Below, piece by piece: positions 3,951 through 39,735 of a stretch of 64,000 bases of DNA. Source of the DNA: an uncultured Clostridia bacterium (lineage in GTDB: Bacteria; Bacillota; Clostridia; TANB77; CAG-465). The notes below the pieces were generated by a model. It had not been told where the DNA came from. It did not search any database and was given only the letters and a program-made list of their open reading frames with translations. The stretch lies in the NCBI GenBank assembly GCA_947624625.1, contig CANQLD010000002.1, forward strand, positions 415 through 64,414. The letters are read 5' to 3'. The position numbers were made by a program, and so were the translations under genes. Numbering within the stretch: position 1 is the first letter of the stretch; every line of letters starts with the position of its first letter.

Positions 3951-4080
3951 TTCTATTTCCTCCAATTTTTAATTATTTATGTTCAATAACTTCTTTATTA
4001 TATCACAAAATAATTAAAAATTCCACTAAATTTAGTAAATAGTTTAAATAAGTTAAACATTTATATAAAAATTTTAGATA

Positions 4081-4560: not shown

Positions 4561-4597
4561 TTTAAATTCCTCCTTTATTTTATATATCAATATATAA

Positions 4598-5116: not shown

Positions 5117-5234
5117 AAAATCACATCCAAAAAATTTTAAAACATAACAACTCTATAACTATATAATATCATAAAATTTAAGTAACTTCAATTTTTAAAG
5201 TTAAAGTTTATAAATAAAAAAGAAGCCTTGTAAG

Positions 5235-7292: not shown

Positions 7293-10200
7293 TAACTAAA
7301 GCCTCCTCCTTGTCTATAATCTCTTTTTCAAGAATTATACTTTCTTTATTACTTCCTTCAATTTCAGATGTTGTTAAGAAATCGTCAACATTTTGTATAT
7401 ATTTTTTAGCAAGGAAAGATAAAAGTTTAACTTCATTATCATCTAAAAATCTTACATTTAAAATAAATATGTTTCCTTTTGAATAGTCCATATATACTGC
7501 TCTATCAATTCTTGATTTTACAAAAGTATATAGTGGTCCATCTTTTTCTTGTTTCTCATTGATAAGTACAATAATATCTAAATCTATTTTTCTATTTTTT
7601 ACATAGTCCATAAATTTAATAACTTCACTAATAATTCCAGCATCTTCAATTTTATCTATGTATATAAGAAGAATTGGTAAATCTCCTGATATAGAATACT
7701 TCCAAAGCATTGACTGGCTTAATGATGTATCCCAGAATTTTGATGTATCAACTGTTATTCTATTAAATAATACTTCTTTTAAAATATTATTATATATTTC
7801 TGCTTTACCAGCTTCAAGTTGCAAATATCTAGATGTAACACTATTTAATTCACCTGTTAATTTAAACTGGTTAACTAGAGTTTTATTATCTAAATTTATT
7901 ACAGCATTAGATATTTTGTATTTACTATCACTAACACCTAAAACATAATAGAATTCTTGTCTTTCATATGCATCAAGTATAATTCTAGCTCTATATGAAA
8001 GCACTGGCCATAATGGATATCTATTAATTGTTTCGTTATATGCATTATCTATATCTTTAACTAATTTTTGTTTTTCTGTTTCCATTTCCTTTTCAAGGTC
8101 GATACCTATAAGTTTTGCATATACGAATAAATCTTCGTCATTTTCATTTTTCTTTCTTTTACTTGCAACTAGTATATCTAAATCTTCGTCATAATATGTT
8201 TCAATTTGCAAATTACTAAATGAAGGATGAACCACATTAGTCATATAATCTGTCATAGCCATTTCTATATATGTATTTATTATAATCTCTCTTCTAACAT
8301 TTGAATTGTTATATATACTTACCTTCTTTATTTCCATATTATATTCAGGCGACATATACATTGTTGTTGTTGTTTCAAGTTCATTACTTTCAAGATATGT
8401 TTCAATTTTATTAAGTGAAGCATTAAATAGTGATTTTTTCATATCCTTATTAATACTATGTGTAAGATTTGTATCCATTACAGAAATTGTTTTACCTGTT
8501 ACTTTATCTGTAAGATATATATAATTTCCACAGTTAGCTAAATTTGTATATCTTTGTTTGTTTATAATTTTATCTTTGTATTTTATAAACATATCTCCAG
8601 AATTTGTAACAATAGTTGAAAGATTTAAACCTTTTAACATTGCAATACAAGTTTCATCTTTAATTTCTGTATCAAGTTCTCTATCTTGAGATATATAATT
8701 TACAAATGTTGTATATTTTTGGATATTTTTCTGTTTGAATACATTTTCATTATCAATAGTAGATTTATTTATTGTTGCTCTTAGTTTTTCTCTTTCTTTA
8801 AGTAATATATCACAAGCTCTAATGTCAGGATTTTCGTGGAAACGTTCTTTAATAATTCCGTGATTTATATAATTATTAATTGATGCAAGTATCATACCTT
8901 GATGGTGAGCCATATATGTTTTTACGATTTCGAATTTTTCATTTTCTCCAATATGTTCTTTAGTATAATCAATTGCTTCATAGAAACCATAACTTGAATA
9001 TGCCCCTATCTTTTTTAATCTTTTTATATTTTTATATACACTATATGGATCATATTCTATTGTTAGAAGTGAAGCATATGGAGATACTACTAAGTAATCA
9101 TTAAGACCTCTTTTAAGTCCAAGCCAAGGAATTCCAAACTCTTGATATTGATAATTTAACTGATTATCCTTAACTGCAAATGCAGATTCAGATACTCCCC
9201 AAGGAACTTGGTTATCTCTTGCATATTTTAACTGACTAAATTTATTAAAGAATAATGATTGGTCAATTAGAGTATGTTCATATGATTTATTAAATATATA
9301 TGGCATAAAGTATTCAAATGATGTTCCTGCCCAAGATATAAGCCCCTTATAGCCATCAACTTTAACTAGATTTCTTGAAAGAGCAAACCAATGCTTTGAA
9401 GTTACCTGCCTTCTTGCAATAGCAATTAGACTTGTTGTTCTACTTTCAGACATTAACATATCATAGTAACTATCAATTAGCTTTCCACTTTCCTGAGCAT
9501 ATCCTACGTGGAATAAGTTTCTTGAAGTATCATATAACTCACTAAAATCAGTATCATTAATAAGTTGTTCATTTAAATCATATAAATAATCAAGTACTGT
9601 ATCATATTCTTCATTTTCTCTTTTACCATAAGAATTATTATCTTTAAGTTCATTTATAAACTGTCTTGCAACATAAAGGCAAGCTATAAAATTACCACTA
9701 TCTACTGTTGAAACAAATCTAGGTCTTAATGGTTCAAGTGTTTTTATATTATACCAGTTATATAAATGTCCTTTCCATTTTTCTAGTTTTTCTAAAGTTC
9801 CATATACATTTTTTAATTTAGTAATTGTTTCTTCTTTTGATATGAATTTTAAATCATATGCAGTTATTATTGCAAGTATTCCCATACCAATATTTGTAGA
9901 AGAAGTTCTATTTGCTATTTTGTATCTTCTATTTTCTTGATAGTTATCTGTTGGCAAATAGTTATTTACTTGTGTCATCATACTATCAAAGAAAAACCAA
10001 GTTCTTTTTGCAACTTCAAGCACTTCTTCTTCCTCTTTATCGTCAAGTCTTTTCCTTCTTCCAAGTAAATGGTCTTTTCCAAGTAAATATGCAAGAAATG
10101 GTGCGAATAAAAATGTAAATGCAATTATATATTTAACATTAAAATGTAATGCAGGGTATGTATTTATTGTTGGTATAATGAAAAGTAAAGCTGCAAATAT

Positions 10201-12885
10201 AACATTAACAAACATATTTATATAATAATAACTTAAAGTATTTTTTGCAGATTTTTCAAGCATTTCACCTGTTGTCCATTGAAGTAATTTTTTATGAGAT
10301 ATAAGCATCCTAAATAGTGAAAGTGTAAATGCACTTACACACATAAATGCTTTATATGGAATTGTGCAAAAGTTTAAACACATTGTAAGTAAGTCTGCCT
10401 GAAAACCGTGTATAATTGGTATATATTGTAAATCTTTACTATGTCTTACTTTACCAAATATAAGTCTATTAATTGTACCAAGTATTGTACCAAAATTTAC
10501 TGTTAAAAATGATACAAGAATACTAATTAAAAATGTTCTCATATCTGTAAATGCAGATAGTATTATAGCAATAGTTGCCATTACATCTAAAAGTGGTCTT
10601 CTTATATTATCAAAAATTTTCCACTTAGAAAGTATTGACAATTTTGATTTTGGAGATAATAACCATTTAATAATTTGCATATCTCCTCTATACCATCTAT
10701 GATTTCTTTTCATATATGATATATAGTTATTAGGGAAACCATCTTGAAGTTCAATATCACTTGCAAGGCCAGCTTTTAGGAAAGAGCCTTCAAGTAAATC
10801 GTGACTTAAAACTAAGTTTTCTGGTATTTCTTTACTTAGTAATTCATTAAATAGTTCAATATCATAAATTCCTTTTCCACAAAAAATAGCTTCCTCAAAA
10901 CAGTCCTGGTAAACATCTGCAACCGCATTTGTATATATATCAAGTCCACCAAAGCCACCAAATATTTTAGAAAAAATACTTTTATTTGCAGATTCTATAT
11001 CAAGTCCAACAGATGGCTGAATAAGTCCATATCCTTTTACAACTGTCTTTTTATCTTTTGAAAGTATTGGTTTATTAAGTGGATGTGCAATTATTGCTAC
11101 CAAATCTTTTGCAGTATTTAAAGAAAGCATTGTATCTTCGTCAACAGTAATTGCATACCTTGCATTTACTATATCATCATATGTTAAATATACAATGTTA
11201 TCTATTTCTTTTTTAGAAAGTTTACCTAAAATTATCTGGTTAAATTGTTGCAAGCCACCTCTTTTTCTTTCCCAACCCATATAGCAATTTTCACTTTTTG
11301 AGTATACACGTTTTCTGTACATAAAGTTAAACAAAACATGTTCAGAATTATACTTATTATTTAATTCATCAAGTTTTTCCTTTGCATAACTTACTATTTT
11401 ATTATCAATGTCTATAACTTGTTTATCACTTGCCATACAGTCGCCAAGCAACATATAATACATATTTTCACTTCTATTTGCAAGATATGTTACTTCCATT
11501 TTATTTATCATTGCGTCAAGTTTTTCAATTGAAGAAATTATGGTTGGCATAACAACATATGTTGGATATTTTTTGTCAACTGTTTTTGCAAAATCAAATC
11601 TAGGAAGTATATTTGGCTTAACAAATTTTCTTAATAAATAATCTACTAGTTTAATTGTAATTTCAAGTGCAAATGAAAATACAATAACAAGAGATATAAC
11701 ATTAAGTATAATGTTATCAAAAAAAGCTATATATGGACTAATAAGTATTGTAACTAAAGAGGCAATAAATATTATACCTACAATATATAATGCAGGTTTA
11801 ATCTTTTTAATTACATTATTATATACCATATCACTTAAATATGATTTACCAAGTTCCTTTTTTAATAGGTATTTTTCTTCTCCGATTAAGAAAAATCCGA
11901 CATGTTTTTTATACTTGATAGAACATTCAACTGCTTTTTTTGCTACATACACTTCTGATAAATTATATTTTTTTGCAAGTTTTATAATATATTTCCTATA
12001 CCTTGTTTTAGTTTTGTAATCACACTTTTTAAACTCATTAGTATAGTCACCTTTTAGAGTTTCATCTATTTTGTTTACCTTTTCAAATATTTCTCTAAAA
12101 TTAATTCCTTGTAACTGTTTGAAAGCAAGAATTGCACGACCTATATAGTTAGTAGTTTTAGAAATTTCCATATGTTCTTTAATTATTGCTTCTTCAACAG
12201 TAAATCCAATTTTTTCCGCTTCTTCATTTAATCTTTTATAATAATTTTCTCTTTTTTTACCTAATTGCTTGACTCTATATGCCATATATTCAACAAAAGC
12301 AGTATTAGTAGATTTAATTTTTGAAAAGTCACTCATATTATCTTTTAAGTTTCTAAAGTATCTAAATTCGTTATATAATTCTTTAAATACAGTATCTTTT
12401 CCTTCATCTGCTTCAAGCATTTTTTCTACTTCAATCTTTTTAAGTTGTGAATTTGAAATATTTAAACATATTCTTGAAATAAACTTTAAAAGAGACATTT
12501 GTAGCATTAATATAAACAAATCTAATTCTTCAGAAGTAAGATATGATAGCTTTTGATGTTCTTTTAAGCAATTAAGTATTATATTTTGGTCAATATATCC
12601 TTTATTTTCCTCAACTAGTTCATAAGCTAAAAAGAAAATACTTATATATTTATCTCCTTCACTTGTTTTTATAATAGGAAGTCTTTTGTTTTTTAAACCA
12701 CGTTTACTATCTTTTATCTTTTGGTATTCTTCCTCAATTATATACATATTATCAAGTAACCATTGTCCTGCTGAATGTATACTTATCTTTTTTTCATATG
12801 ATTTTTCCAATAATTTATATGTATCACTAATATTATTATAGTGAAATTCTGCATCTCTAAATAATTCATTTAGTGCATTTTTCAT
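7279..12885 (-). CDS. Cyclic beta-1,2-glucan synthase-like protein (GT84 glycosyltransferase, TM region and glucoamylase-like domain)
   Basis: Motifs ITVDEDTML, GYGLIQPSVG, AVADVYQDCFEEAIFCGKGIYD, LSHDLLEGSF and RNHRWYRGD, plus several hydrophobic helices. The RTSSTNIGM...STVDSGNF block is as in Cgs/ChvB/NdvB. Confidence 0.8.
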   Translation of the reverse strand: MKNALNELFRDAEFHYNNISDTYKLLEKSYEKKISIHSAGQWLLDNMYIIEEEYQKIKDSKRGLKNKRLPIIKTSEGDKYISIFFLAYELVEENKGYIDQNIILNCLKEHQKLSYLTSEELDLFILMLQMSLLKFISRICLNISNSQLKKIEVEKMLEADEGKDTVFKELYNEFRYFRNLKDNMSDFSKIKSTNTAFVEYMAYRVKQLGKKRENYYKRLNEEAEKIGFTVEEAIIKEHMEISKTTNYIGRAILAFKQLQGINFREIFEKVNKIDETLKGDYTNEFKKCDYKTKTRYRKYIIKLAKKYNLSEVYVAKKAVECSIKYKKHVGFFLIGEEKYLLKKELGKSYLSDMVYNNVIKKIKPALYIVGIIFIASLVTILISPYIAFFDNIILNVISLVIVFSFALEITIKLVDYLLRKFVKPNILPRFDFAKTVDKKYPTYVVMPTIISSIEKLDAMINKMEVTYLANRSENMYYMLLGDCMASDKQVIDIDNKIVSYAKEKLDELNNKYNSEHVLFNFMYRKRVYSKSENCYMGWERKRGGLQQFNQIILGKLSKKEIDNIVYLTYDDIVNARYAITVDEDTMLSLNTAKDLVAIIAHPLNKPILSKDKKTVVKGYGLIQPSVGLDIESANKSIFSKIFGGFGGLDIYTNAVADVYQDCFEEAIFCGKGIYDIELFNELLSKEIPENLVLSHDLLEGSFLKAGLASDIELQDGFPNNYISYMKRNHRWYRGDMQIIKWLLSPKSKLSILSKWKIFDNIRRPLLDVMATIAIILSAFTDMRTFLISILVSFLTVNFGTILGTINRLIFGKVRHSKDLQYIPIIHGFQADLLTMCLNFCTIPYKAFMCVSAFTLSLFRMLISHKKLLQWTTGEMLEKSAKNTLSYYYINMFVNVIFAALLFIIPTINTYPALHFNVKYIIAFTFLFAPFLAYLLGKDHLLGRRKRLDDKEEEEVLEVAKRTWFFFDSMMTQVNNYLPTDNYQENRRYKIANRTSSTNIGMGILAIITAYDLKFISKEETITKLKNVYGTLEKLEKWKGHLYNWYNIKTLEPLRPRFVSTVDSGNFIACLYVARQFINELKDNNSYGKRENEEYDTVLDYLYDLNEQLINDTDFSELYDTSRNLFHVGYAQESGKLIDSYYDMLMSESRTTSLIAIARRQVTSKHWFALSRNLVKVDGYKGLISWAGTSFEYFMPYIFNKSYEHTLIDQSLFFNKFSQLKYARDNQVPWGVSESAFAVKDNQLNYQYQEFGIPWLGLKRGLNDYLVVSPYASLLTIEYDPYSVYKNIKRLKKIGAYSSYGFYEAIDYTKEHIGENEKFEIVKTYMAHHQGMILASINNYINHGIIKERFHENPDIRACDILLKEREKLRATINKSTIDNENVFKQKNIQKYTTFVNYISQDRELDTEIKDETCIAMLKGLNLSTIVTNSGDMFIKYKDKIINKQRYTNLANCGNYIYLTDKVTGKTISVMDTNLTHSINKDMKKSLFNASLNKIETYLESNELETTTTMYMSPEYNMEIKKVSIYNNSNVRREIIINTYIEMAMTDYMTNVVHPSFSNLQIETYYDEDLDILVASKRKKNENDEDLFVYAKLIGIDLEKEMETEKQKLVKDIDNAYNETINRYPLWPVLSYRARIILDAYERQEFYYVLGVSDSKYKISNAVINLDNKTLVNQFKLTGELNSVTSRYLQLEAGKAEIYNNILKEVLFNRITVDTSKFWDTSLSQSMLWKYSISGDLPILLIYIDKIEDAGIISEVIKFMDYVKNRKIDLDIIVLINEKQEKDGPLYTFVKSRIDRAVYMDYSKGNIFILNVRFLDDNEVKLLSFLAKKYIQNVDDFLTTSEIEGSNKESIILEKEIIDKEEALVNEEE

Positions 12886-15049: not shown

Positions 15050-15090
15050 AATATTACAAAAATAAAGAGGCAAAATTAATTACCTCTTTA
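15050..15090 (-). terminator. Rho-independent terminator ending the vWA-kinase operon
   Basis: 8-bp stem TAAAGAGG/CCTCTTTA (15063..15070 and 15083..15090), followed by a T-rich tract on the minus strand. It lies 10 nt after the stop at 15100. Confidence 0.6.
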
Positions 15091-15099
15091 CTTTACAAT

Positions 15100-18000
15100 T
15101 TAATTATTATTTAACTTAGTAAACTCAAATGTATATTTTGAGTATTGGTATACTCTAAAACCTTTCAAAATTATTTCAATTTTAGAGTTTTTTGTTACTC
15201 CATTACACAAATAACAAGTTTCTTCTCCATTATCTATATCTATTGCACATATTTTTTCTAAGTCGGGATAAAAAAGCTTTTTGTTAAAATATATAGCATT
15301 AGAAAGATAAATGTCCTTTCTTAAGTTAGTTATTTTTGAAAGAAAATCTGTACAAGTTACTTCATTACAAGTTTTGTCACTCATAGATAACAAAAATGCC
15401 TTACAAGTTTTTGGTTCAACAACAAGCCATTTTTGAGTTATTAAATCTGCAAAAATATATGGTGTTGTATGTTTACCAAAATTTTTAATTACAGTTTCTA
15501 TTGCATAAACATATGAAAATATAACTGATAAATCATTATGACCGTTAATAGAAGAGATATTTAAAACCAAATTATCTGGGTATGTTACATTGCCATCACA
15601 TTGCAAGTCAATATCCTTTAAGAATATTTGTTTTTCTTCTCTTTGAGCAGATAAGATATTTAACTTGCCATCAGGTGTTAAATAGCAACATAAAAAGACA
15701 TTTGTAAATGGAATTGCAAGCCCAGCTTTTGGATAGATTACTTTTCTTTTCAAAATTTCATCTTTATCTACTTCTAAATTATTAATAAACGGCTTTACTG
15801 AAAAGTACAGTTTATTTTCACATATTTTAATTATAAAATTATTGTTACACTCATAAAAAGAAGTTGCGTCTTCTAAATATTTTTTAGGTATACCTTTTTT
15901 TGAAAACTTACTTGGAATATTAGCTAAGTTACACTTCAATTTAGAAAAAGCATTTAATACAACGTTTTTTGTATCAGAGATTTCATCATCATTATCCTCT
16001 GTATCAGGATTTTTCTTCTCTTCTTTTTCTACTGGTATCTCAATATCTTCTAATTTGCTAATATAGTTTATTTTAGTATTATAAAGTCTAAAATATTCAT
16101 TAACTAAGTATTTGCCAATATTAAAACGTTTATCTTTTTCAAAAATGTCGAGAAAGGCATTTACAAGCTCATCAGACATCCAGCTCCAATCTTCAATAAT
16201 TGGAGGTACGATAACATCATAATCACCAAGTACAGAGATTCTTGAAACCATTCTTTCTCTTTGTTTTAACACTCTACCATTTTCATCCTTATATACACCA
16301 TTAAATGGATGCAAAAAAGTCAAAACGTAAAATGCCATTATAGCAAGAGAATAATAATCTCCTTCAAAAGAAGATACACAATATCCATAACCTTCTCTAC
16401 TTGTATCTGCTACAACAGACAGTGGGTCTAAGAAAGGCTCCGTATAAACAGTATACTGACCCGGTTTTATATTCGCACTATCTAAGTCAATAACAGATAC
16501 TTCTTTTGTAGATAGATTAAATAGAACGTTATTATGGCTTACATCACCAATATAAATACCATTTATATGGCAAAATTCAATTGCACTACAAAGATAAATA
16601 AGTATCTCTAACTTATCTTTAAGAGTTATATTATACTTTTCAACTTTAGAACGGTCTGTAAGTATTCTAAAAGGCTTACTATTTGTAATTTCCTCAATAA
16701 CAGGACCACAAAATTCGTCAGTTTCATCATCAAGAATTAGTCCAACTGTTTTAGGAATTTTAAAGTTGTACATTGAAGTATCTTGAGGATTAATTTTAGT
16801 AATTAATGTACTAATTACTCTTTTTTTATTTTCAAAGTTTTGTAAGTTCCTTGAAGATTCCTCATTATCATTTTCTCTGTAAATTTTACCCAAGAAACCA
16901 TTTTCTAAATCGTAAATAATTGCTTCACGCCCATCTTCAGAAAATATGGGTTTCTTTTCTACTACACTTCTTTTATATCCTTCTACTTTATATCCACACA
17001 AAGGACATTTTCCATATATTGTAGGAGAATAATAAATGTTATGGAAAATACAAAACTTATTTGTAGAATTTATATATTCTCCTAGAATAGCTATAGCATT
17101 TTCAAAATTTTCACAAATAATGTAAGTACTAAACAACTTTATACGTTCTTTATCAAAACCAATTGCAAGTTCAAAATATTTCTTAAGAAATGTCTTTACA
17201 TTTGGAGTTATAACACTACCTTCTTCTTTTGTAAGATAAATAATTTCATTAACATAAACTTTAAAAGAAGTAGAAAATGAAATAAGCTCTTCAACGTCAA
17301 AACCTTTAATAAGAGATAAATGATTTACTTTTAGCTTAATTAAAAACTTTACAAAACCACGAATACACTTTAAAATTTCTAAATTGCTAAGTGTATCAAT
17401 ATCAAGTAGTTTTCTTGATTTACTTTCATAAGAAAGATAACCAATACTTTCTTTGTCTGAGCCAAAGTCAAATACGTTTTTATAAACGATATTTTTTAAG
17501 TTTATACCTTTCAAATTTCTTGCAAAGTTTACAAAATCAACTTCATTTTTACTCTTTACATTAAGACATTTAAATTGCAAACCGTTTACAATATCAATAC
17601 TATAAAGATATGTGGTAAATAAATCGTTTGAAGAAATCCCTTCGTACTTCTTTGTAAATCCCCTTTTATTTACAAAGAAGTCATCTTTAAGAAAAGCTGG
17701 CGAAGGGGTAAAACTTGTAAGAGTTCCGACATCATTACGAAGTTTTGCTAAAAAATCATATATGCGTTTTGTTTCTTTGCACATAACACTACTTCCAGCA
17801 TACGGAATACCAACTCTAACATCCCTTACATCAAAATTTGCAAGTTTGTATAATTTATTTATAGCTTTAACATAGGTATTCATAATTTTATAACAAATTT
17901 CTTTTTCTTTATCTTCCTTATCTTCTATATAGTTAATCAATACATTTTGGTTTAAGTAGTTATCATTGTAAACACAGTTTGATATAATTCTTCTTAAATT

Positions 18001-20223
18001 TACATACGGTTTAAGTGTTTTGCTAAAACAAATTGAATTAATATCAATGTATACCATATACTTCATTGAGTGATTAATTATTTGTAATAGTAACATGATT
18101 ATATCAAATATTGCTCTTACACGGTCTTCATATTTAAGTTTTGCAATTAATTTATCAACATCTGATAAATACACATAATTTTTATAGCTTCTCGAAGGAA
18201 ATTTTAGACCATAAATCTCAAAATCATCAGATACTTTTACAGTTGAATAATAAACTATATTTTCAGGTGCACAAATTACAGAAAGCTTATAATTTGAACC
18301 ACTAGATATTTTAGATGCATACCTTTTTATTGAGCTTATATGCTTAAGTAATGAAGAAACTTCATCATAAGCAAGTCTATTTGTTTTTAAGATATTTACA
18401 TCATTTGTTGGTAAATCATCAACAAATACAGGTGGTAATTTTCTCGGAGAAACTACATATTTTGAATAAAAATTTAACCCATATATTGAATAATCTGCCA
18501 AAGTATTTTTAATAGCCCTAAAAAAGTAAAATTTATCAAAATCGCCACCAGTTATATAGCTCTCATAGTATTTTATAAAATAAGGTGACATTGAATATAC
18601 ATAATACTTACCTTCTATATACTCAATTTTCCCCTCTTTAATATTATAACTAACAAGTTGATTAAAAAAGCTAATAAAGCTTTTTACTATAAAATCAATA
18701 AATTCTTCAGAAAGCTTATTATTAGACTCTTTTTTTACAATTTCCATATTTTCAATATTTCTAAAAATTAAACTATTATTTGGAATATCAACTATAATAT
18801 CATCAAGTGTTAATTCCTTGTTAAAGTTTAGTACACCAACTCCATCAATTAAATTATATAAATCCTTTGAGTAAAATTCAAGAATCTTACTATAAAGCTC
18901 TTTAAAAGTTTTTAACATATTGCTACAATTTATATACTTTGAAAGTGGAACTATATCTTCACTAGAATCACCAGTAAAAACACCGTAATCTTCAATCATA
19001 AAACCAATTGGATGTTCTTGTCCATCTTGATATATAAGTTTAAATATTTTGTAGTCATTATCAAACCTACTACTAGAATACAATTTCATAAAATTCTTTA
19101 AAAAACAACAAAGAACTTTCATATTACTTAGTGATTCTTCATCATCTTTTTTATAAATTATATAACTTGTTCCCTTATAGGTTATAACATCATACAAGCA
19201 TGTCGAATATTTTACATCACCATTTTTAATAATCGCTCTATATGTATCTTCAGTAACATATGAAAGCACGTCACTTGCATAAGGAGATACTAAAAGCCGT
19301 TTCCGATTGTATACATTATTTCCAAATATCGCTAAGTTTTCAAATTCTTCAGTTACTACCTTAGCAAAATATGCTAAATCAACATTTTCATTTAACTTAA
19401 AAACTCTTTTATATAAATCAATAAACTGGGTAGATAAGTAATGAAAACATTCGTCTTCTAATACTTTACTATAGTAGTATTCACCAAAATTTTGAGTTGA
19501 AAAGTCACAAAAGTGCAGTTTAGTTGCGACATACTTTAAATAGCATTTTAAATTAAATGAATAATTTAACTTTTTATTTTCATTCAAAACCTTCAACTCA
19601 TGTATATTATTCATTGTAAGATATGGTATACCAGCTACATCATTAATTTCACTTGTTTCCACAATTTCATTAAAAAATGGGGCTTCTGAGATTAAAATAC
19701 CATTTGAAGATAAAAATACTATAAAATTTAAAAGTGCCATTAGATATTTGTATACGTTGTTTTCTTTAAAAGTCTCAATGTTGGTACCAGAATTAAATCT
19801 TAACTCTAAATGCTTGAAGTTACGAATTTTAACGACATTATTCCGACGTAATATTCCTAAATTTATATAGCGTTCATAGCCTATTTTTATTGAGTCAAGA
19901 TTTTCTTGTTTTTCTGGAATTTCATATCCAATAATTGCTTTTTTAGAATCATTATCCTCGTAAATACATACAAGTTTAGCTACATTAAATTTAATAAGAG
20001 ACGAATCATCATATGATTTTAAAATCTGAATAATTTTTTCAAAATTTTCTTTATCTGTTATTGGATTTTTAGGAATAACAATCTTACGAAAAGTCCCTAA
20101 ATCATAGTAATAATTTACTGCAGAACCATTTGGAGATTTAACATCATTATTTTGTAAATTCGCAGATAAAAATCTCGATTTAAGTCCCAAAGAAAAATTT
20201 TTTATACCAGCTTTTATGTTCAT
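15100..20223 (-). CDS. 1707-aa multi-domain protein: about four degenerate kinase-like modules, a zinc ribbon, one apparently active Ser/Thr-kinase-like core and an unknown C-terminal domain
   Basis: Uninterrupted ORF. Kinase signatures in one segment: GFLGKIY, CHINGIYIGDVSHNNVLF (D-x4-N), VSVIDLDSA, YTEPFLDP and DYYSLAIMAFYVLTFLHPFNG. A CxxH...CPLC ribbon lies just upstream. The context is vWA + PP2C neighbours. Confidence 0.75.
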   Translation of the reverse strand: MNIKAGIKNFSLGLKSRFLSANLQNNDVKSPNGSAVNYYYDLGTFRKIVIPKNPITDKENFEKIIQILKSYDDSSLIKFNVAKLVCIYEDNDSKKAIIGYEIPEKQENLDSIKIGYERYINLGILRRNNVVKIRNFKHLELRFNSGTNIETFKENNVYKYLMALLNFIVFLSSNGILISEAPFFNEIVETSEINDVAGIPYLTMNNIHELKVLNENKKLNYSFNLKCYLKYVATKLHFCDFSTQNFGEYYYSKVLEDECFHYLSTQFIDLYKRVFKLNENVDLAYFAKVVTEEFENLAIFGNNVYNRKRLLVSPYASDVLSYVTEDTYRAIIKNGDVKYSTCLYDVITYKGTSYIIYKKDDEESLSNMKVLCCFLKNFMKLYSSSRFDNDYKIFKLIYQDGQEHPIGFMIEDYGVFTGDSSEDIVPLSKYINCSNMLKTFKELYSKILEFYSKDLYNLIDGVGVLNFNKELTLDDIIVDIPNNSLIFRNIENMEIVKKESNNKLSEEFIDFIVKSFISFFNQLVSYNIKEGKIEYIEGKYYVYSMSPYFIKYYESYITGGDFDKFYFFRAIKNTLADYSIYGLNFYSKYVVSPRKLPPVFVDDLPTNDVNILKTNRLAYDEVSSLLKHISSIKRYASKISSGSNYKLSVICAPENIVYYSTVKVSDDFEIYGLKFPSRSYKNYVYLSDVDKLIAKLKYEDRVRAIFDIIMLLLQIINHSMKYMVYIDINSICFSKTLKPYVNLRRIISNCVYNDNYLNQNVLINYIEDKEDKEKEICYKIMNTYVKAINKLYKLANFDVRDVRVGIPYAGSSVMCKETKRIYDFLAKLRNDVGTLTSFTPSPAFLKDDFFVNKRGFTKKYEGISSNDLFTTYLYSIDIVNGLQFKCLNVKSKNEVDFVNFARNLKGINLKNIVYKNVFDFGSDKESIGYLSYESKSRKLLDIDTLSNLEILKCIRGFVKFLIKLKVNHLSLIKGFDVEELISFSTSFKVYVNEIIYLTKEEGSVITPNVKTFLKKYFELAIGFDKERIKLFSTYIICENFENAIAILGEYINSTNKFCIFHNIYYSPTIYGKCPLCGYKVEGYKRSVVEKKPIFSEDGREAIIYDLENGFLGKIYRENDNEESSRNLQNFENKKRVISTLITKINPQDTSMYNFKIPKTVGLILDDETDEFCGPVIEEITNSKPFRILTDRSKVEKYNITLKDKLEILIYLCSAIEFCHINGIYIGDVSHNNVLFNLSTKEVSVIDLDSANIKPGQYTVYTEPFLDPLSVVADTSREGYGYCVSSFEGDYYSLAIMAFYVLTFLHPFNGVYKDENGRVLKQRERMVSRISVLGDYDVIVPPIIEDWSWMSDELVNAFLDIFEKDKRFNIGKYLVNEYFRLYNTKINYISKLEDIEIPVEKEEKKNPDTEDNDDEISDTKNVVLNAFSKLKCNLANIPSKFSKKGIPKKYLEDATSFYECNNNFIIKICENKLYFSVKPFINNLEVDKDEILKRKVIYPKAGLAIPFTNVFLCCYLTPDGKLNILSAQREEKQIFLKDIDLQCDGNVTYPDNLVLNISSINGHNDLSVIFSYVYAIETVIKNFGKHTTPYIFADLITQKWLVVEPKTCKAFLLSMSDKTCNEVTCTDFLSKITNLRKDIYLSNAIYFNKKLFYPDLEKICAIDIDNGEETCYLCNGVTKNSKIEIILKGFRVYQYSKYTFEFTKLNNN
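16110..16950 (-). other. Predicted catalytic protein-kinase core within the 1707-aa protein
   Basis: The catalytic-loop Asp codon is at 16543..16545 (IGDVSHNN). The DLD (DFG-equivalent) is at 16480..16488. Domain boundaries are approximate. Confidence 0.6.
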
Positions 20224-20241
20224 AAAATCTGCCTCCTTATC

Positions 20242-20874
20242 TTAAACGTTTGAAAATAAATCGATTCCTTCAATCATACTCTTAGAACATTGTTTAATAG
20301 TATCAAACATATCCGTTAAACCTTTGCTATCTCTTTTGAATTTATGGATATGTTCATATCCAAGACTTAAAATCTCCTTGTTTCTGTGGCCAAAAAGAAG
20401 TAAGTGTGTCTCAACATTATTTTGTTTTAAATACCTTATTGCATTTTGTGCCTCGTTTAGATAGTAGCCACTTTCTTTGCTACCTTCATCTTTACCATCA
20501 GTTATAGTAAAGAAAATTGTTTTTAAGTTATATCCACTATTTTGAGCTTTTTTTATATAACCTTCATTAGGAAAAAGCAAACTTTCAGTTATTCTACAAA
20601 TAGAATAATAAAGAATACTTTTCCCACCAGTTATATAGCTTGAAGAAAAATCACTTGGCTTGCAAACATCTTTTTCTTCATAATTACCTGAAAAATCAGC
20701 TCTAAGTATTAATACAACTGAACTATCTTCTATACCGTTTAAAAAGCCTTTAATGTCCTCAAACTCACTTGATACCTGTTCTTCCCATTTTTTCATTGAT
20801 GATGACTTATCAATCAAAAAAACAAGCAACGTTGTATTGTCCGATTTTACAACTTGGTCGTAATTTAGTAACAT
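20242..20874 (-). CDS. von Willebrand factor A domain protein (TerY-like), copy B
   Basis: MIDAS elements LVFLIDKSSSM (DxSxS) and FFTITDGKDEG. ATG at 20874 is preceded by GGGAGG. The stop lies 18 nt before the kinase gene start. Confidence 0.75.
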   Translation of the reverse strand: MLLNYDQVVKSDNTTLLVFLIDKSSSMKKWEEQVSSEFEDIKGFLNGIEDSSVVLILRADFSGNYEEKDVCKPSDFSSSYITGGKSILYYSICRITESLLFPNEGYIKKAQNSGYNLKTIFFTITDGKDEGSKESGYYLNEAQNAIRYLKQNNVETHLLLFGHRNKEILSLGYEHIHKFKRDSKGLTDMFDTIKQCSKSMIEGIDLFSNV

Positions 20875-20934
20875 TTCAATTCCTCCCATTTTTACATTAA
20901 ATTATTTTTGTAATAAAACAGATTTTACAGGCTA

Positions 20935-20963
20935 ATTATATCAAAATATTATGTAAAAGTCAA
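20935..20963 (-). promoter_or_regulatory. Sigma-A consensus promoter of the vWA-B/kinase operon
   Basis: Minus strand reads TTGACT (20958..20963), a 17-nt spacer, then TATAAT (20935..20940). Confidence 0.6.
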
Positions 20964-21011
20964 TAATTATGTTAATTATAAATATATATAATATCAAATA
21001 ATTACTAATTA

Positions 21012-21051
21012 TTCAAAAAATAAAAGACTAAGAAATTATTCTTAATCTTTT
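21012..21051 (-). terminator. Rho-independent terminator ending the TelA-PP2C-vWA-A operon
   Basis: 13-bp stem AAAAGACTAAGAA/TTCTTAATCTTTT (one G-U pair) at 21022..21051, followed by TTTTTT on the minus strand. Confidence 0.65.
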
Positions 21052-21064
21052 ATTTTTATACTAG

Positions 21065-21745
21065 TTAGAAATTCTCAAGCCAATTGTCAACATTTACAAT
21101 TTCCATCTTGCTTTGACTGATAGTTGTTTGAGTTATAGCATCCATTATTTGAACCAAAGCATCTTCGCTATTTTCTGGATCATATATCGAAGTAAAGCCG
21201 AGCTTTCTTGGAATGCTTCCATTACGTCCACCAAAATCGATAAAAATCATTGTGATGTCATTTTCAAGTGCCTCTGTCACACTATTCATTGCATCATCAA
21301 AATCATATCCAGAACCTTCTTCATCAAGACAATGCTCCCCATCTGAAAAATAGATGTTAAAAAGTGTAGGTGTATACCCTTGTTCAATTAGGGACTTTTT
21401 GGTTTGAATTGAAGAGTTTACAGAAGAAACAATTGCTCCATAAAGATCTGTCCAACCGTTTGCAGTATAATTTGTTGAAATATTCCTTATGTTAAGGTAT
21501 TTGCTATCGTTGTAATAATCTGCAAAATCAACCCTCGAAACAAAAATCCGTGATGCTTCTTCAGATGAAGAAATCTTTCTTTTGTATTCTTCAAGACATT
21601 CTCTCATAATTGATTCGTAACTATGCATTGAACTTGAACAGTCAAGTACTAATTTATAGAAATGCCCATCCATTGTACTTGGTGTTTCAAATAGGGTATC
21701 ATCCCCTTTAACACTGAATTCTTTCATCTTTTTTAAAACTGACAT
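21065..21745 (-). CDS. von Willebrand factor A domain protein (TerY-like), copy A
   Basis: MIDAS elements LVLDCSSSM, NGWTDLYGAI and IYFSDGEH. ATG at 21745 is preceded by GGAGGA. Confidence 0.75.
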   Translation of the reverse strand: MSVLKKMKEFSVKGDDTLFETPSTMDGHFYKLVLDCSSSMHSYESIMRECLEEYKRKISSSEEASRIFVSRVDFADYYNDSKYLNIRNISTNYTANGWTDLYGAIVSSVNSSIQTKKSLIEQGYTPTLFNIYFSDGEHCLDEEGSGYDFDDAMNSVTEALENDITMIFIDFGGRNGSIPRKLGFTSIYDPENSEDALVQIMDAITQTTISQSKMEIVNVDNWLENF

Positions 21746-21772
21746 TTTAAATCCTCCATTCATTTTTGTTTT

Positions 21773-22816
21773 TTATTCGTCGTCATTATTTAAAAAATTT
21801 AAAAGTTCTTCTTGCTTATTTTTCAAAGCTAAAGTATCAAAGCTTTTTTCAGCTTCTACAATCAAATCTTCAATACTAAAAAGTACAATAAAAAAATCAC
21901 CATTACTTAAAAAAGCTACTAAATTAGATATGTTCATTGTTTTAATCTTACTAAATTTTTCTCGTAACTCATCATAATATGTAGATTTTTTCAAACCTTC
22001 AATTTGTTCCTCTAGATTATTTAAATCGTGCATAAGAGGTACTAAATATTCAGATTTAAAATCCTCTTGATAGTTATACGACAAGTTATGAACTTTAGAA
22101 TATCTAATTGTACACTTTTCCAAAATATAGAAAAGTGTTGTGTATATATCTTTTAAGTTATTTGTATTAATTAAGTCATTAATTGAACTTTTAGAGAGTG
22201 TTTCTTCACCAAATACCCTTATTAAAATTTCTGAGATTTTTGATCTTGCCTGTGAAATACACTCCCTAAAACTTCCTTTATACTTTCCACGAATATACTG
22301 ATTATAATACTTAGATATTTCAGTATACAACTTAGTAAATCTATCTAAAAGAATTTTAGATAATGCTTCAAAGGTTATAAAATCATCAATCTCAGCCTGA
22401 ACTTTTCTAATTTTGTCAAGTAGTTCCTTGTTATATAATGGATTACAAGTAAAAACTAACTCATTACTTGTCATTGCTTTTACATATGCTTCATACTCTT
22501 GCTTACACTCTTTTTCAAGTTTATCAAGTTTTAAATTGAATTCTACGAACTCATTAGGACTTACAATTTCAATTCTTGAAAGTTTAGTTCTAAGAGAGTT
22601 AATATCGTCAATTAAAGTATTGCTTGCAACAAAAGGAAAATCAACTTTACTACCTTCCTCTTTAGAAGTACTTTCTGCCTCTTTAACAGCTTCTTCATCA
22701 TTTTGTTCATTAGATGTAGATTGATTTTTAAAAGAAAAATTAAAACTATCTTTTTTACTCAAAAGTTTCTCAAGAATCATTTTGTATAAATAGTTTAATT
22801 TATCTAGTAACTTCAC
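21773..22816 (-). CDS. Hypothetical protein, predicted mostly helical, with an acidic Ser/Glu-rich N-terminal region
   Basis: 347-aa ORF with a GTG start 8 nt after GAGGGGAG. It sits inside the TelA-PP2C-vWA operon. I recognise no family. Confidence 0.55.
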   Translation of the reverse strand: MKLLDKLNYLYKMILEKLLSKKDSFNFSFKNQSTSNEQNDEEAVKEAESTSKEEGSKVDFPFVASNTLIDDINSLRTKLSRIEIVSPNEFVEFNLKLDKLEKECKQEYEAYVKAMTSNELVFTCNPLYNKELLDKIRKVQAEIDDFITFEALSKILLDRFTKLYTEISKYYNQYIRGKYKGSFRECISQARSKISEILIRVFGEETLSKSSINDLINTNNLKDIYTTLFYILEKCTIRYSKVHNLSYNYQEDFKSEYLVPLMHDLNNLEEQIEGLKKSTYYDELREKFSKIKTMNISNLVAFLSNGDFFIVLFSIEDLIVEAEKSFDTLALKNKQEELLNFLNNDDE

Positions 22817-22833: not shown

Positions 22834-23775
22834 TTATGAGTAATTTTCATACTCAAGTTCAATACTATCTGCACCAAGCATAGCTAAAACTTCAACGTTT
22901 TCTTTATCAAGTACGTAAAATGTTAAGTTTATATCTCTTCCTTTAAAAGATTTAATGCAGCTTTGAGCAATACTTATTGAAGAGGAAGTTATATCATATA
23001 ACATATCTTTACCGTTACAAACAACACATATATTTTTTACCTTTGGAATAAAATAATCTCTACTTAACCTAAAAGTTGTAAAATATCTTCTAGAAATTGG
23101 TGTATGAATACCACTATCTAGCATCTTTAAGCAAGATTCCTTTTCCTTAATGGCGACCTCTAAGCAGCGGTCTAAATAATTCTTTTTCTCAATTTCAAAT
23201 TCTTTAGCTGTAATACAATTAGGCAGTTCAATATTTAAAGACTTTTCGTCAATCATTTTAATTAAATCAGCAATATTTAGACTTTGACTTGGAAAATCGC
23301 CACTATAAAAAGCCTTTTGTATTTCAGAAATATATTCTTCTGTTTCAGAAATTTTACTTACTTCAAGAATAGCAGTTGCCGAAAGCAATGTGTCATTTCT
23401 AAAAAAGAAACAATAATCACTTGTTAAATTTTTAGGTAATAATTTTTCTGCAACCCTCAAAAATTCTTCCTCAGTTATCCGTATATCAAAAACAAATATG
23501 GTAACAGTTTTTGTAAGTTGGGTTCTGTAGTTGTTTGGAAAAACGAAAGGTGCATAATATGGATAGTATTTATCATTTTTAAGTAATTCCCTTTCTTTTT
23601 TTTCGTCTACATAAACAACAGTTGCCGAGTTTTTGGAATTATTATCCCAATAGTCTCCTTGATATGGATAAGGATAAGAGCCTCCGTAATTTACTTGCTG
23701 CTTATTTACTGGAGGTTCATAATCAACAAAGCCATCAACGATTTCTTTTAAAATTTTAGTTACCTTTTTACCCAT
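22834..23775 (-). CDS. Hypothetical protein with a Tyr/Pro-rich N-terminus
   Basis: 313-aa ORF whose ATG overlaps the PP2C stop (ATGGGTAA). Contains GGSYPYPYQGDYWDNN. An alternating strand/helix pattern (TIFVFDIRITEEE, ICVVCNGKD) could be a MIDAS-less vWA-like fold, but this is unverified. Confidence 0.55.
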   Translation of the reverse strand: MGKKVTKILKEIVDGFVDYEPPVNKQQVNYGGSYPYPYQGDYWDNNSKNSATVVYVDEKKERELLKNDKYYPYYAPFVFPNNYRTQLTKTVTIFVFDIRITEEEFLRVAEKLLPKNLTSDYCFFFRNDTLLSATAILEVSKISETEEYISEIQKAFYSGDFPSQSLNIADLIKMIDEKSLNIELPNCITAKEFEIEKKNYLDRCLEVAIKEKESCLKMLDSGIHTPISRRYFTTFRLSRDYFIPKVKNICVVCNGKDMLYDITSSSISIAQSCIKSFKGRDINLTFYVLDKENVEVLAMLGADSIELEYENYS

Positions 23776-24493
23776 TTTGATTACCTCCTAAAAGTAAAAT
23801 TGTAGTATCGTCACAAAGATAATTTTTAAAAGACTTTATATAATTGTTTAATCTAGTATTTGCTTTATCTTCACTTAAGAAGTCAGAATTAGAAAGATAA
23901 AATTCTAGCTTTTCTTTCCCTTCTTTTCCTATACCATTAATTTTTTTTACAAAAGGATCAATACCATCGCTGGCAATACCTACAGCTTTAAAATATTCTT
24001 TCTTAAAGACATATTTTTTAAACTTAAGTTTAGGCTTGTCACTCATACAATAGTTGTATACAAGATAAGGTGGTTTGTTATGGTCATACGAAAAATGTAT
24101 ATACGAAAACATTCCACGTTTGTTTTGAGTAATTATATACCCGTCACCAAGTATATATACAATAAAATCGTCCTTTGTTTCAAAACAAGAAAGTAACGTA
24201 AAAAAGAGATTGTTTACAAGTAAATCAGTTGTATAGTTTCCGTCATTACAAATTTGCTTGTTATACTTTTGAAGCAAGCTTATTAACATCTCCATTATAT
24301 AGGTTATGTTTTCTTCAAATTTTTCTTCCTCATTACAAGTAGGAATTCCACCAAAAAGTTGAAGAATAAGCCTTGTACCAACTTCGCTATATTTACTTCT
24401 ACTGCAACCATCTGCTAACACACCAAAATTTTTGCCTGTTAAACAGAAATCTTGATTTGCATTGTGCTCTTTTCCTATAACTGATGCATACAT
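23768..24493 (-). CDS. PP2C-family Ser/Thr protein phosphatase-like protein
   Basis: N-terminal SVIGKEHNANQDF...GVLADGCS pattern and a later ILGDGYII/IASDGI pattern, as in bacterial PP2C_2-type phosphatases. ATG at 24493 is preceded by GGAGTG. Confidence 0.65.
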   Translation of the reverse strand: MYASVIGKEHNANQDFCLTGKNFGVLADGCSRSKYSEVGTRLILQLFGGIPTCNEEEKFEENITYIMEMLISLLQKYNKQICNDGNYTTDLLVNNLFFTLLSCFETKDDFIVYILGDGYIITQNKRGMFSYIHFSYDHNKPPYLVYNYCMSDKPKLKFKKYVFKKEYFKAVGIASDGIDPFVKKINGIGKEGKEKLEFYLSNSDFLSEDKANTRLNNYIKSFKNYLCDDTTILLLGGNQNG

Positions 24494-24519
24494 ATAGTTC
24501 ACTCCATTCCGTAACAATT

Positions 24520-25776
24520 TTACCACTCAAGTTTGTTTCCACTACCAGTTTTCTTGGTGGAAGTAGAAGTTTTTAGTCTGTCATATACAGTTTCTTCATC
24601 GTCAGCTTCTCCCTCACCAAGTAATGTAGCATTAAACTTACTTGATTTTTCAATAGCCTTTGCACGTCCGTGTTGTTCACTTTCTGCTTCTCTTACGCAT
24701 TTTTCAAACATTTCCTTACCTTCGTTAAATGCTTTTACTAAAACGTCAATGCACTGATTAACAACTTCTGCATCAACGTCACCCTTAGTAAGCAAACCAA
24801 CAATGTCAACAAAATTTGCCGCATGTGTATTTGCATTTTCAATCATAAGATTTTTGTTAAGCTCATTAAGCCCTTTGTAGCCATCAACCATTGAACGAAC
24901 CTTTTCAGCAAAAATAGCATTTCTTGCATTTTGACTGAAAATATTAAGGATTGTATCTTTAGCTGTGGTATACAAAAATTCCATTGCATTAAGCTCACCT
25001 ATTGTTGAGTTAATGAAGTTAGAAGAAAGATAAGTCGACTCTCTTTCCTCATCACGTTTTTTAAGTACAAGACTCATAATATTTAGTCCATTTTTTATAT
25101 CTTGAAATCTAAATAATTCATCCGTACTTAAAGCCACTGAATCTCCGTTTTCTTTCAACTGTTCTGCCTCTTCTTTAAAATGTTCCATAGCTATCAAACC
25201 CGCAATAATGTAGTCAGTAAGACTATCAATTGTCTCCTTATCCATTAAAGAAAGTTCTTTAGCTCTAGTATTTAAATTTTTGCACATACTTGCTTGTTTA
25301 TCCAAAGCAAGACCTAATTCTTCAAGAATTTCAGCAGAATTTTTCGCCTTTAAACTCATATCCTCTTTTTCCTTGTTACCAATAAACAAAGAAATCATTT
25401 TTTGGATAAAATTCTTTTCCTTTTGAACAATTTGCAGCTGACTAATTTCATCCTTCGACTTTGCAGAAAGTTCTGCAATTCGTTTAACCAGTTCTTCATC
25501 CTCTTTTTCTCCTGCCATTTCCTTCAAAAAATCCATATTTGCATTAGTGGATTTAACCGAAACATTTGAAGCATAGGCCATAACCTTATCCGTTGATGTA
25601 ACATCAATTTGCTCTGCAAGAGCTAAAACAGCTTCCCGTCTTTCGACTGGTAAAAGCCCGGCAGACTTTGCAGTAAGCATTGGCAGTGATGGAACATCAC
25701 TTTCATTTACTTCCACTATACTTGTTGTTTCTTCCGTCAATTCTTCCACCGTGTTTACGTTTTTCTCTTCAACCAT
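24520..25776 (-). CDS. telA: TelA-like (toxic anion resistance) family protein
   Basis: 418 aa. Shows the TelA-like N-terminal pattern LPVERREAVLALAEQIDVTSTDKVMAYASNV and a long helical body. ATG at 25776 is preceded by AGGAGG. Confidence 0.65.
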   Translation of the reverse strand: MVEEKNVNTVEELTEETTSIVEVNESDVPSLPMLTAKSAGLLPVERREAVLALAEQIDVTSTDKVMAYASNVSVKSTNANMDFLKEMAGEKEDEELVKRIAELSAKSKDEISQLQIVQKEKNFIQKMISLFIGNKEKEDMSLKAKNSAEILEELGLALDKQASMCKNLNTRAKELSLMDKETIDSLTDYIIAGLIAMEHFKEEAEQLKENGDSVALSTDELFRFQDIKNGLNIMSLVLKKRDEERESTYLSSNFINSTIGELNAMEFLYTTAKDTILNIFSQNARNAIFAEKVRSMVDGYKGLNELNKNLMIENANTHAANFVDIVGLLTKGDVDAEVVNQCIDVLVKAFNEGKEMFEKCVREAESEQHGRAKAIEKSSKFNATLLGEGEADDEETVYDRLKTSTSTKKTGSGNKLEW

Positions 25777-25847
25777 TTTCAAATCCTCCTTGTAATTTTT
25801 AATTAACTTCCTTACTATAGAAAGTATAGATATAATTATGTAAAGAC

Positions 25848-25876
25848 ATTATATCATTTTATGTCCACAAAGTCAA
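25848..25876 (-). promoter_or_regulatory. Sigma-A consensus promoter of the telA operon
   Basis: Minus strand reads TTGACT (25871..25876), a 17-nt spacer, then TATAAT (25848..25853). Confidence 0.6.
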
Positions 25877-28120: not shown

Positions 28121-28169
28121 TAAAGACTCCTCCTTTAATATAAGTAAGTATAATATATTATTTAAACAA

Positions 28170-28198
28170 ATTATACCTTCCGAATTTCGAATTGTCAA
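28170..28198 (-). promoter_or_regulatory. Sigma-A consensus promoter of the Clp_N-AAA-M41 gene
   Basis: Minus strand reads TTGACA (28193..28198), a 17-nt spacer, then TATAAT (28170..28175). Confidence 0.6.
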
Positions 28199-28242
28199 TA
28201 AAAATGAAAAAATACCACAATTTTTATCAAAAAGTGGCATTA

Positions 28243-38323: not shown

Positions 38324-38386
38324 TGTATTGTCCTCCTTCTAATTTTTTTGTGATTACACATAAAATTCTTAATCATTTTCGAACTC

Positions 38387-38415
38387 ATTTTATCACAGCA
38401 ATTTATTTATGTCAA
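38387..38415 (-). promoter_or_regulatory. Promoter of P1
   Basis: TTGACA (38410..38415), a 17-nt spacer ending in TGA, then TAAAAT (38387..38392). The -35 box is bracketed by a 10-bp inverted repeat. Confidence 0.55.
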
Positions 38416-38456
38416 TAATAAATTGCTTTTTGTAAGTTTTTTTACCTTTAATAAAC

Positions 38457-38494
38457 AAAACATACTATGAAATAAAAATCTCATAGTATGTTTT
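38457..38494 (-). terminator. Terminator after P2
   Basis: 14-bp stem AAAACATACTATGA/TCATAGTATGTTTT. Confidence 0.75.
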
Positions 38495-38500
38495 GTTAAG

Positions 38501-39733: not shown

Positions 39734-39735
39734 AA

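Follow-up and report, generated by a model that had tools for sequence, protein, structure and literature searches.

A giant Clostridia protein kinase with four apparent pseudokinase modules and its TerY-P-like gene cassette

A single gene of an uncultured Clostridia bacterium of the gut raises the question of how, and to what end, a bacterium came to carry one polypeptide of 1707 residues in which an apparently functional protein kinase is preceded by a long series of kinase-like segments. The gene occupies positions 15100-20223 of a 64,000-nucleotide stretch of contig CANQLD010000002.1 (assembly GCA_947624625.1, positions 415 to 64,414), which we refer to as the window. The window is AT-rich, with a GC content of about 27%, and nearly all of its genes, including this one and all the window features located below, lie on the minus strand. 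A preliminary description, made from the sequence alone, had proposed an active kinase core preceded by about four degenerate kinase-like modules and had suggested that such an array could act as a scaffold or decoy. The reading that we favour, and hold to be moderately probable, is that the giant kinase arose by duplication of a unit consisting of a kinase and a zinc ribbon, that four of the copies became pseudokinases, and that the protein forms the kinase arm of a TerY-P-type system with a role in stress or in countering invading elements.

The reading frame is intact. A strong ribosome-binding site, with the Shine-Dalgarno sequence AAGGAGG, lies 8 nucleotides upstream of the ATG start codon at 20223, and a terminator-like hairpin (15059-15094) directly follows the stop codon and closes the operon. 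Intact homologues of 1346-1688 residues are present in six independent assemblies and, therefore, the gene is not an assembly artefact. No transmembrane segments were detected by hydropathy in the kinase or in any protein of the gene cassette to which it belongs. The family is small. An exhaustive HMMER scan of residues 1-1200 against 1.84 billion representative proteins yielded four relatives only, and further ones were recovered by scanning GTDB genomes and JGI metagenomes, namely L001, from a metagenome-assembled genome (MAG) of an uncultured Clostridia bacterium of the rabbit gut, L007 and the distant L008. Word-indexed searches, whether started from the whole protein, from the family alignment or from that of the kinase, recovered nothing beyond the query itself or a single irrelevant fragment, and it took the exhaustive scan to bring relatives to light. 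In total, about seven family members were found in public data, all of them in AT-rich MAGs or metagenomes.

Residues 1090-1385 (16069-16956) carry a Hanks-type Ser/Thr kinase domain, in agreement with the active core that had been proposed. The Pfam Pkinase profile (PF00069), which has a gathering score of 31.7, matches residues 1193-1354 at 31.8 bits when run on the whole protein and reaches 34.2-34.7 bits on the excised domain; it matches all five family kinases, with a best E-value of 2.5e-12. A phmmer search of the PDB aligned the segment IYIGDVSHNNVLF ... VIDLDSA to IIHRDVKPANILI ... VVDFGIA of PknB, pairing the catalytic residues with the RDxKxxN and DFG motifs of the latter. The AlphaFold2 model of residues 1041-1707 has a mean predicted local distance difference test score (pLDDT) of 57, with values of 70-94 across much of the kinase, and in the PDB it gave 1664 Foldseek matches at E<=1e-3, the best of which, to IRAK4, ErbB4 and phosphorylase kinase, extend over about 320 columns with a target-relative template modelling (TM) score of about 0.6. 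Since matches of this length cover whole kinase domains, both lobes are present, including the ATP-binding lobe, the possible lack of which had been raised in the preliminary description.

The motifs quoted there are all found in the protein: GFLGKIY at 1109-1115, FCGPVIEEI at 1171-1179, the catalytic loop CHINGIYIGDVSHNNVLF at 1218-1235, VSVIDLDSA at 1242-1250, YTEPFLDP at 1260-1267 and DYYSLAIMAFYVLTFLHPFNG at 1289-1309, together with the zinc-ribbon Cys motifs CIFH (1058-1061) and CPLC (1073-1076). Invariant throughout the family are G1098, K1113 in strand beta3, D1227, N1232, D1246 (as DLD) and D1248 and, at the APE-like motif and beyond, T1261, D1266, P1267, D1289, H1305, P1306, F1307 and R1324; 70 of the 104 family-invariant positions fall within residues 1058-1369. 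The kinase is of the non-RD type (IGD). Two features tell against an active enzyme, namely a glycine-rich loop, DGREAIIY, with a single Gly, and the presence in the window protein of R1135 at the position of the alphaC Glu of the relatives, with E1131 lying one helical turn earlier, and for these reasons phosphotransfer is plausible rather than certain. As judged from the conserved residues and the model, we consider the domain to be a complete, two-lobed and catalytically competent-looking Hanks-type kinase. A RIO-type kinase, of which the motifs GKEA and GDxSxxN are reminiscent, was considered and rejected, only Pkinase-type profiles giving matches.

Evidence for the nature of the duplicated unit comes from a zinc-ribbon-like motif, C1058-x2-H1061 ... 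C1073-x2-C1076 (16969-17073), in which all family members keep C1058, C1073 and C1076 and which recurs in L008. The 624-residue kinase encoded at the L008 locus, which is homologous to the window kinase (E 1e-25), carries the motif FCxxHxxYYS...CPxC directly after its kinase domain, followed by a beta-rich domain of about 300 residues, and the duplicated unit was therefore probably a kinase with a C-terminal zinc ribbon. The preliminary description had noted the motif as preceding the active core; the motif is indeed present between module 4 and the kinase, but its residues 1058-1076 are more aptly assigned to module 4, as an appendage at the C-terminal end, the active copy having apparently lost its own ribbon. 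Moreover, the relatives P0006, P0007 and L007 have a second Cys motif upstream of module 4; in P0007, KCSKHNFWYNDEDCCSIC before module 4 parallels YCKRHNHYYLDGECCLEC before the kinase, and in both P0006 and P0007 the series helix, zinc ribbon and module 4 aligns colinearly with helix, zinc ribbon and kinase at z=8.9-10.3, a level reached in 0 of 300 shuffles.

The L008 locus (2691-9853) encodes, in order, two PP2C-type phosphatases, a 791-residue TPR-like protein, a vWA protein and the kinase-zinc ribbon-beta domain protein, and it lies upstream of the genes for ribosomal proteins L3 and L4. It looks like an unexpanded system of the ancestral type.

Whether the 1050 residues preceding the ribbon have a kinase fold at all is critical for this interpretation. 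We consider it very unlikely that they constitute an unrelated alpha/beta repeat or helical region, for which a poor model and the mutual alignment of hydrophobic helices produced spurious kinase matches, and the evidence on this point is as follows. The four hinge-like motifs of the preliminary description, each followed by its helix, lie at residues 96, 405, 670 and 926, one in each of the four modules. Module 1 (residues 1-296; 19336-20223) shows helix alphaE at 152-173 and alphaF at 222-235, with a poorly modelled N-lobe. Module 2 (297-579; 18487-19335) is the best modelled, with pLDDT values mostly of 65-90 and the complete order of kinase elements: three strands at 336-357, alphaC at 362-374, beta4 at 393-399 and beta5 at 407-410, on the invariant PIG of PIGF (405-408), and thereafter alphaD, alphaE at 436-451, four short strands and alphaF at 506-523. 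The spacing of these elements, comparing model with model, is within a few residues of that of the real kinase. Module 3 (580-830; 17734-18486), with beta4-5 at 667-676, alphaE at 698-721 and low pLDDT, provides the weakest evidence of the four, and module 4 (831-1050; 17074-17733) shows beta5 at 926-930, alphaE at 947-966 and alphaF at 1007-1020. Modules 1, 3 and 4 thus repeat a pattern of beta-hairpin, long alphaE, strands and alphaF.

When the model of residues 1-1050 was compared with the PDB by Foldseek, the top 50 matches were all to protein kinases, including the pseudokinase STK40. Most of the top matches in the viral library BFVD, where kinases are a minority, were also kinases (best E 5.6e-4, probability 1.0), and an ABC1-like kinase in that library matches the model at a TM score of 0.47. 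Module 2 is the most likely source of these matches. Independently of the model, profiles of the modules and of the active kinase (K), built from seven family members, were aligned with hhalign. AlphaE fell on alphaE in eight of the ten pairs, with mutually consistent and transitive offsets, the shift from module 1 to module 2 (279) and that from module 2 to module 4 (512) adding approximately to the shift from module 1 to module 4 (793). P-values were 0.0011 for modules 1 and 4, 0.0042 for module 4 and K, 0.0057 for modules 1 and 2, 0.018 for modules 3 and 4, 0.058 for module 1 and K and 0.081 for modules 2 and 4; the pairs of modules 1 and 3 and of module 2 and K were not significant yet in register. 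Reversed-template controls failed (P>=0.14), and pairs with the C-terminal domain were neither significant nor in a comparable register, the closest being that with K (P 0.075). Plain Smith-Waterman alignment singled out only the pairs of modules 3 and 4 (z=5.3) and of module 4 and K. Taken with the spacing in module 2 and the alignments of module 4 in P0006 and P0007, the common register argues against a chance resemblance.

There are, nevertheless, several points that speak for the alternative and against a kinase fold. The model of residues 1-1050 rests on an alignment of five sequences and has a mean pLDDT of 53; it is confident over residues 160-578 and 940-1050 and falls below 50 at 1-155 and 579-938, about half of its length, and the N-lobes of modules 1, 3 and 4 are of low confidence. 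The matches in the PDB, with probabilities up to 0.99, have E-values of 0.04-0.2, all above 0.01 and none at E<=1e-3, and the search used the whole model, its output not identifying the module matched. Searches of modules 1-4 and the C-terminal domain with Pfam, NCBIfam and PHROGs revealed neither a kinase nor any other family, and the profile of module 2 gave no kinase signal against PDB sequences or, by hhalign, against the kinase profile. Smith-Waterman z-scores of about 4 to 5 were also obtained for control pairs, including those with the C-terminal domain, and module scores of 4-5 were consequently not counted. Nevertheless, with the lines of evidence converging, each of them modest, we conclude from alignments and models that modules 1-4 are probably degenerate copies of the kinase unit, as had been proposed. 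The assignment is surest for modules 4 and 2, and least sure for module 3 and for the N-lobes of modules 1 and 3.

The loss of the catalytic Asp and Asn from the upstream modules, also part of the preliminary description, could be confirmed on the family alignment: the conserved pattern D-x4-N...D[FL][GD] occurs only at 1227-1248, in the real kinase, and in none of the four modules. With the kinase fold retained and the catalytic residues lost, the modules are best classed as putative pseudokinases. A non-canonical activity of some modules, involving nucleotide binding or catalysis in the manner of WNK, CASK or SelO-type proteins, would make the protein a multi-enzyme, and we rate this as the least probable of the alternatives considered. 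In module 2, K358, with which the beta3-like strand ends, was conserved in the first alignment of five sequences but dropped from the invariant list once L001 and L007 were added. D or N is conserved at the catalytic-loop Asn position of module 2, and D716 and N718 (DINS) are partly conserved in module 3; in no module, however, are the catalytic-base and metal-binding positions both occupied by conserved acidic residues, and the conserved residues of the 1-1050 region are nearly all hydrophobic or structural.

Beyond the active kinase, the protein ends with a beta-rich domain (residues 1441-1707; 15103-15903) with about 20 predicted strands, low pLDDT and no Pfam match. This region had been called Cys-rich, which does not hold for the family, since of the 13 Cys residues in the window protein only about two are conserved among relatives. 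An acidic low-complexity linker rich in Lys, Glu and Asp (residues ~1400-1440; 16024-16100), which differs in length and sequence among relatives, joins it to the kinase, and both linker and domain are lacking in P0004. Homology with the C-terminal domain of the L008 protein was rejected; the two domains are colinear, but their alignment lacks significance (P 0.048) and falls in another register.

The kinase is the last gene of a seven-gene operon that extends from a promoter-like site, TTGACT-17-TATAAT with an upstream TG (25848-25876), to the hairpin at 15094-15059, with the order TelA-like protein, PP2C, 313-residue protein, 347-residue protein, two vWA-like proteins and kinase. The first gene (24520-25782) encodes a 420-residue protein with 38% identity (E 1e-66) to its counterpart in L004; the latter carries a precomputed Pfam TelA match, and because the window protein itself fell below detection in a Pfam scan for TelA, the label is accepted only through the L004 orthologue. 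The PP2C-type phosphatase (252 residues; 23768-24526) matches Pfam PP2C_2 with E 3.5e-8, its 33.7 bits exceeding the gathering score of 24, and is homologous to PP2C of L008 (E 4e-19). Next come a 313-residue protein (22834-23775) with a 211-residue positional counterpart of 29% identity in L004 and no family match, and a helical 347-residue protein (21773-22816) with an orthologue of 45% identity at the same position in L004 and no Pfam family. The 232-residue vWA-like protein (21065-21763) is 25% identical to its 215-residue paralogue (E 5e-14), with DxSxS and DG invariant. The 215-residue protein (20242-20889) shows the metal ion-dependent adhesion site (MIDAS) residues DxSxS ... T ... DG; the profile built from its family matches the vWA protein of L008, which passes the Pfam VWA threshold, with an hhalign probability of 98.8% (E 4e-17), and five of the seven members of its family have sub-threshold VWA matches.

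The stop codon of the 215-residue vWA gene lies 18 nucleotides upstream of the kinase start, and in six of six loci a vWA homologue of 210-215 residues ends 6-18 nucleotides before the kinase, so that this pair forms the minimal unit conserved in the relatives. The full seven-gene cassette recurs in L004; in L002 only vWA and kinase are present and PP2C is absent, and on the short contig of L003 these are the only two genes visible. A second promoter-like site, again TTGACT-17-TATAAT with TG (20963-20935), is located in the 176-nucleotide gap between the two vWA genes (20890-21064), on account of which the pair may also be transcribed alone.

The cassette is immediately preceded, in the window as in L002 and L004, by a gene for a 751-residue FtsH-like protein with AAA and Peptidase_M41 domains (25985-28240), from which the cassette promoter is separated by a terminator-like hairpin (25951-25919). 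Its HEAAH motif is intact, and as it lacks a transmembrane segment and has an acidic low-complexity insert it is not a canonical membrane FtsH; judged by eye only, its Walker A and B regions look like those of ClpA/B/C D1. It evolves as fast as the kinase, with 34% identity to its L002 orthologue, compared with 88% for TypA and 71% for Cmk. Although the terminator-like hairpin intervenes, the protein may be part of the system, in a pairing of AAA+ with vWA.

The gene content invites comparison with the TerY-P triad, which, in the accounts that PMC11090510 and PMC4978471 give of Anantharaman et al. 2012, consists of a TerY-like vWA protein, a PP2C phosphatase and a Ser/Thr kinase (STK) with a C-terminal zinc ribbon, and is proposed to be a metal-sensing phospho-switch. 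A variant of the triad is, according to the same two papers, reported by Gao et al. 2020 to be an anti-phage system that stands alone. All three components are shared by the window operon, which in addition encodes a TelA-like 'Ter' protein: there is a PP2C phosphatase, the two vWA-like proteins qualify at the level of the vWA family rather than of the TerY subfamily, and the kinase family carries a zinc ribbon, but between module 4 and the active kinase instead of at the C-terminus. L008 has the exact layout of PP2C, vWA and STK-zinc ribbon, with all three proteins homologous to those of the window. The differences lie in the size of the kinase, with its four pseudokinase copies upstream of the active domain and its beta-rich tail, in the second vWA paralogue and the two extra genes of the window (some relatives keep vWA and kinase only), and in a window cassette without associated nuclease or restriction genes. 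As far as can be judged from sequence, the window cassette is a derived TerY-P-type kinase cassette in which the kinase was expanded into a pseudokinase array.

The divergence of the locus was gauged against the syntenic L001 (window 15100-20889 against L001 173-5878). In the flanks, TypA shows 95% amino acid identity and a nonsynonymous substitution rate (dN) of 0.024, a 1868-residue neighbour 92% (dN 0.05) and a GH94 neighbour 88.5% (dN 0.072), all with nucleotide identities of about 87%. For the 215-residue vWA protein the values are 77% (nucleotides 75-78%; dN 0.145) and for zinc ribbon and kinase core 68-69% (nucleotides 70-79%; dN 0.195). Amino acid identity falls to 34-46% in modules 1-4 (nucleotides 44-59%, up to 67% in module 4; dN 0.46-0.62) and to 37% in the C-terminal domain (nucleotides 56-57%; dN 0.57), such that dN is 10 to 25 times as high in the modules as in the flanking genes. 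In the flanks, synonymous rates (dS) are 0.63-0.97; within the kinase gene they approach saturation at about 1.2-1.4. Reading frames of 1350-1700 codons nevertheless stay intact despite this divergence. Fast evolution is common among proteins in conflict with viruses, and the pattern, so far as sequence comparison goes, agrees with a conserved enzyme whose surrounding binding surfaces evolve by diversification or by replacement of alleles. It was also observed that the drop in identity at the edges of the kinase gene is sharp and that dS is raised inside the gene as well; old alleles exchanged by recombination, and not only fast evolution, could account for this.

The same architecture could, however, constitute a lineage-specific housekeeping scaffold for signalling, for example in the cell envelope, sporulation or protein quality control, in which the modules are structural spacers with relaxed constraint, without any part in conflict with phages. 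We regard this as possible but rather unlikely, and several observations lend it weight at the expense of a conflict role. The locus occupies a fixed slot among housekeeping genes (cmk, acyltransferase, UDG, ..., FtsH-like, ..., typA) in all loci with flanks, with no obvious mobile island, and no integrase or mobile-element genes were seen there; no kinase relative was found on the viral contigs searched; and PADLOC yielded no defence-specific match, only generic kinase matches (PD-T4-6, MkoA, mad6) and none for vWA or PP2C. Moreover, dN/dS within the kinase gene is about 0.4, not above 1, and relaxed constraint could be the source of part of the divergence. A mobile or phage origin of the system was itself rejected, there being neither relatives on viral contigs nor PHROG matches. 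Spacers under relaxed constraint are, on the other hand, difficult to reconcile with so high a dN in modules of genes that remain intact in all lineages, and a housekeeping role with a cassette content that varies between close relatives from seven genes to two. Furthermore, modules of vWA, PP2C and STK are documented as conflict or stress modules (PMC11090510). We consider a stress or anti-invader role the most likely, and it is our leading hypothesis.

Under the reading that we favour, a cytosolic giant Ser/Thr kinase would have been built by serial N-terminal duplication of the kinase and zinc ribbon unit, with modules 1-4 retaining the kinase fold and losing their catalytic residues and the fifth copy (1090-1385) acting as the sole enzyme. 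The fast-evolving pseudokinase modules and C-terminal domain would then provide binding or regulatory surfaces that either restrain the kinase or recruit partners, be it the adjacent vWA protein or foreign proteins, for example of phages. On a trigger, the kinase may phosphorylate the vWA protein or other targets, and PP2C would reset the switch.

A further system that bears comparison is the ternary conflict system of MoxR, vWA and beta-propeller described by the Aravind group (PMC13622651). The window shares with it an upstream AAA+ gene, a vWA protein and a Ser/Thr kinase as signalling part, and the beta-rich domain of the kinase, for which only a beta-rich fold is predicted, could be propeller-like; it differs in that the AAA+ protein is separated from the cassette by a terminator-like site. 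Assignment to this type was rejected, the AAA+ protein carrying Peptidase_M41 and matching bpMoxR only below threshold (E 0.0078).

Tandems of pseudokinase and kinase are well known as regulatory and immune devices of eukaryotes, such as the Janus kinases and the tandem-kinase resistance proteins of plants, and in the eukaryotic Janus kinases and GCN2 a single pseudokinase regulates the adjacent kinase domain. There, as in the window protein, the pseudokinase is N-terminal to the active kinase in one chain, which suggests an intramolecular regulation; their other domains differ and they have no vWA/PP2C operon. Plant tandem kinase proteins are kinase-pseudokinase immune receptors, for example Yr15/WTK1 and RWT4, and two of them, Lr9 and Pm57, also carry a vWA domain (PMC6170490, PMC10260399, PMC11153570). 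They resemble the window protein in combining a live kinase with degenerate copies, in their link to vWA and in the fast divergence of their non-catalytic parts. Their vWA is, however, a domain, whereas that of the window is a separate, tightly coupled gene; they have one or two pseudokinases as opposed to four, and they belong to another kingdom, so that the analogy is a functional one only. The literature searched contained no account of a bacterial protein in which four pseudokinases precede one kinase, which is not proof of absence.

By analogy with the plant receptors, the window protein may be their bacterial counterpart, with hypervariable pseudokinase decoys that mimic host kinases and bind phage proteins directed against kinases, whereupon the live kinase would be released and cause growth arrest, through the vWA/MIDAS partner and possibly the AAA-M41 protease, until reset by PP2C. 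We consider this specific version unlikely; the extreme divergence of the modules is the only observation that fits the scaffold or decoy role suggested in the preliminary description. If it were true, the combination of kinase, pseudokinase decoy and vWA would be a recurrent immune design across kingdoms. More generally, if the modules are sensors or decoys, the protein offers a compact model for how pseudokinases gain recognition functions and extends the range of TerY-P-type systems; if they are not, it still shows clearly, in a natural case, how domains are duplicated and then lose their catalytic function.

Elsewhere in the window, a tandem array of five genes (37274-43176) encodes proteins of 349, 355, 350, 351 and 364 residues; an N-terminal DUF4116 repeat was found in two of the three that were scanned, and they possibly form a paralogous family. 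The 1868-residue neighbour referred to above (5235-12885) carries GH94 supersandwich and glycoamylase domains and a weak match to an MdoH-like glucosyltransferase, and its gene overlaps by 14 nucleotides that of a 685-residue protein with the GH94 catalytic domain. The pair looks like a cyclic beta-1,2-glucan synthase/phosphorylase divided between two genes, and it is kept in L001 at 89-92% identity.

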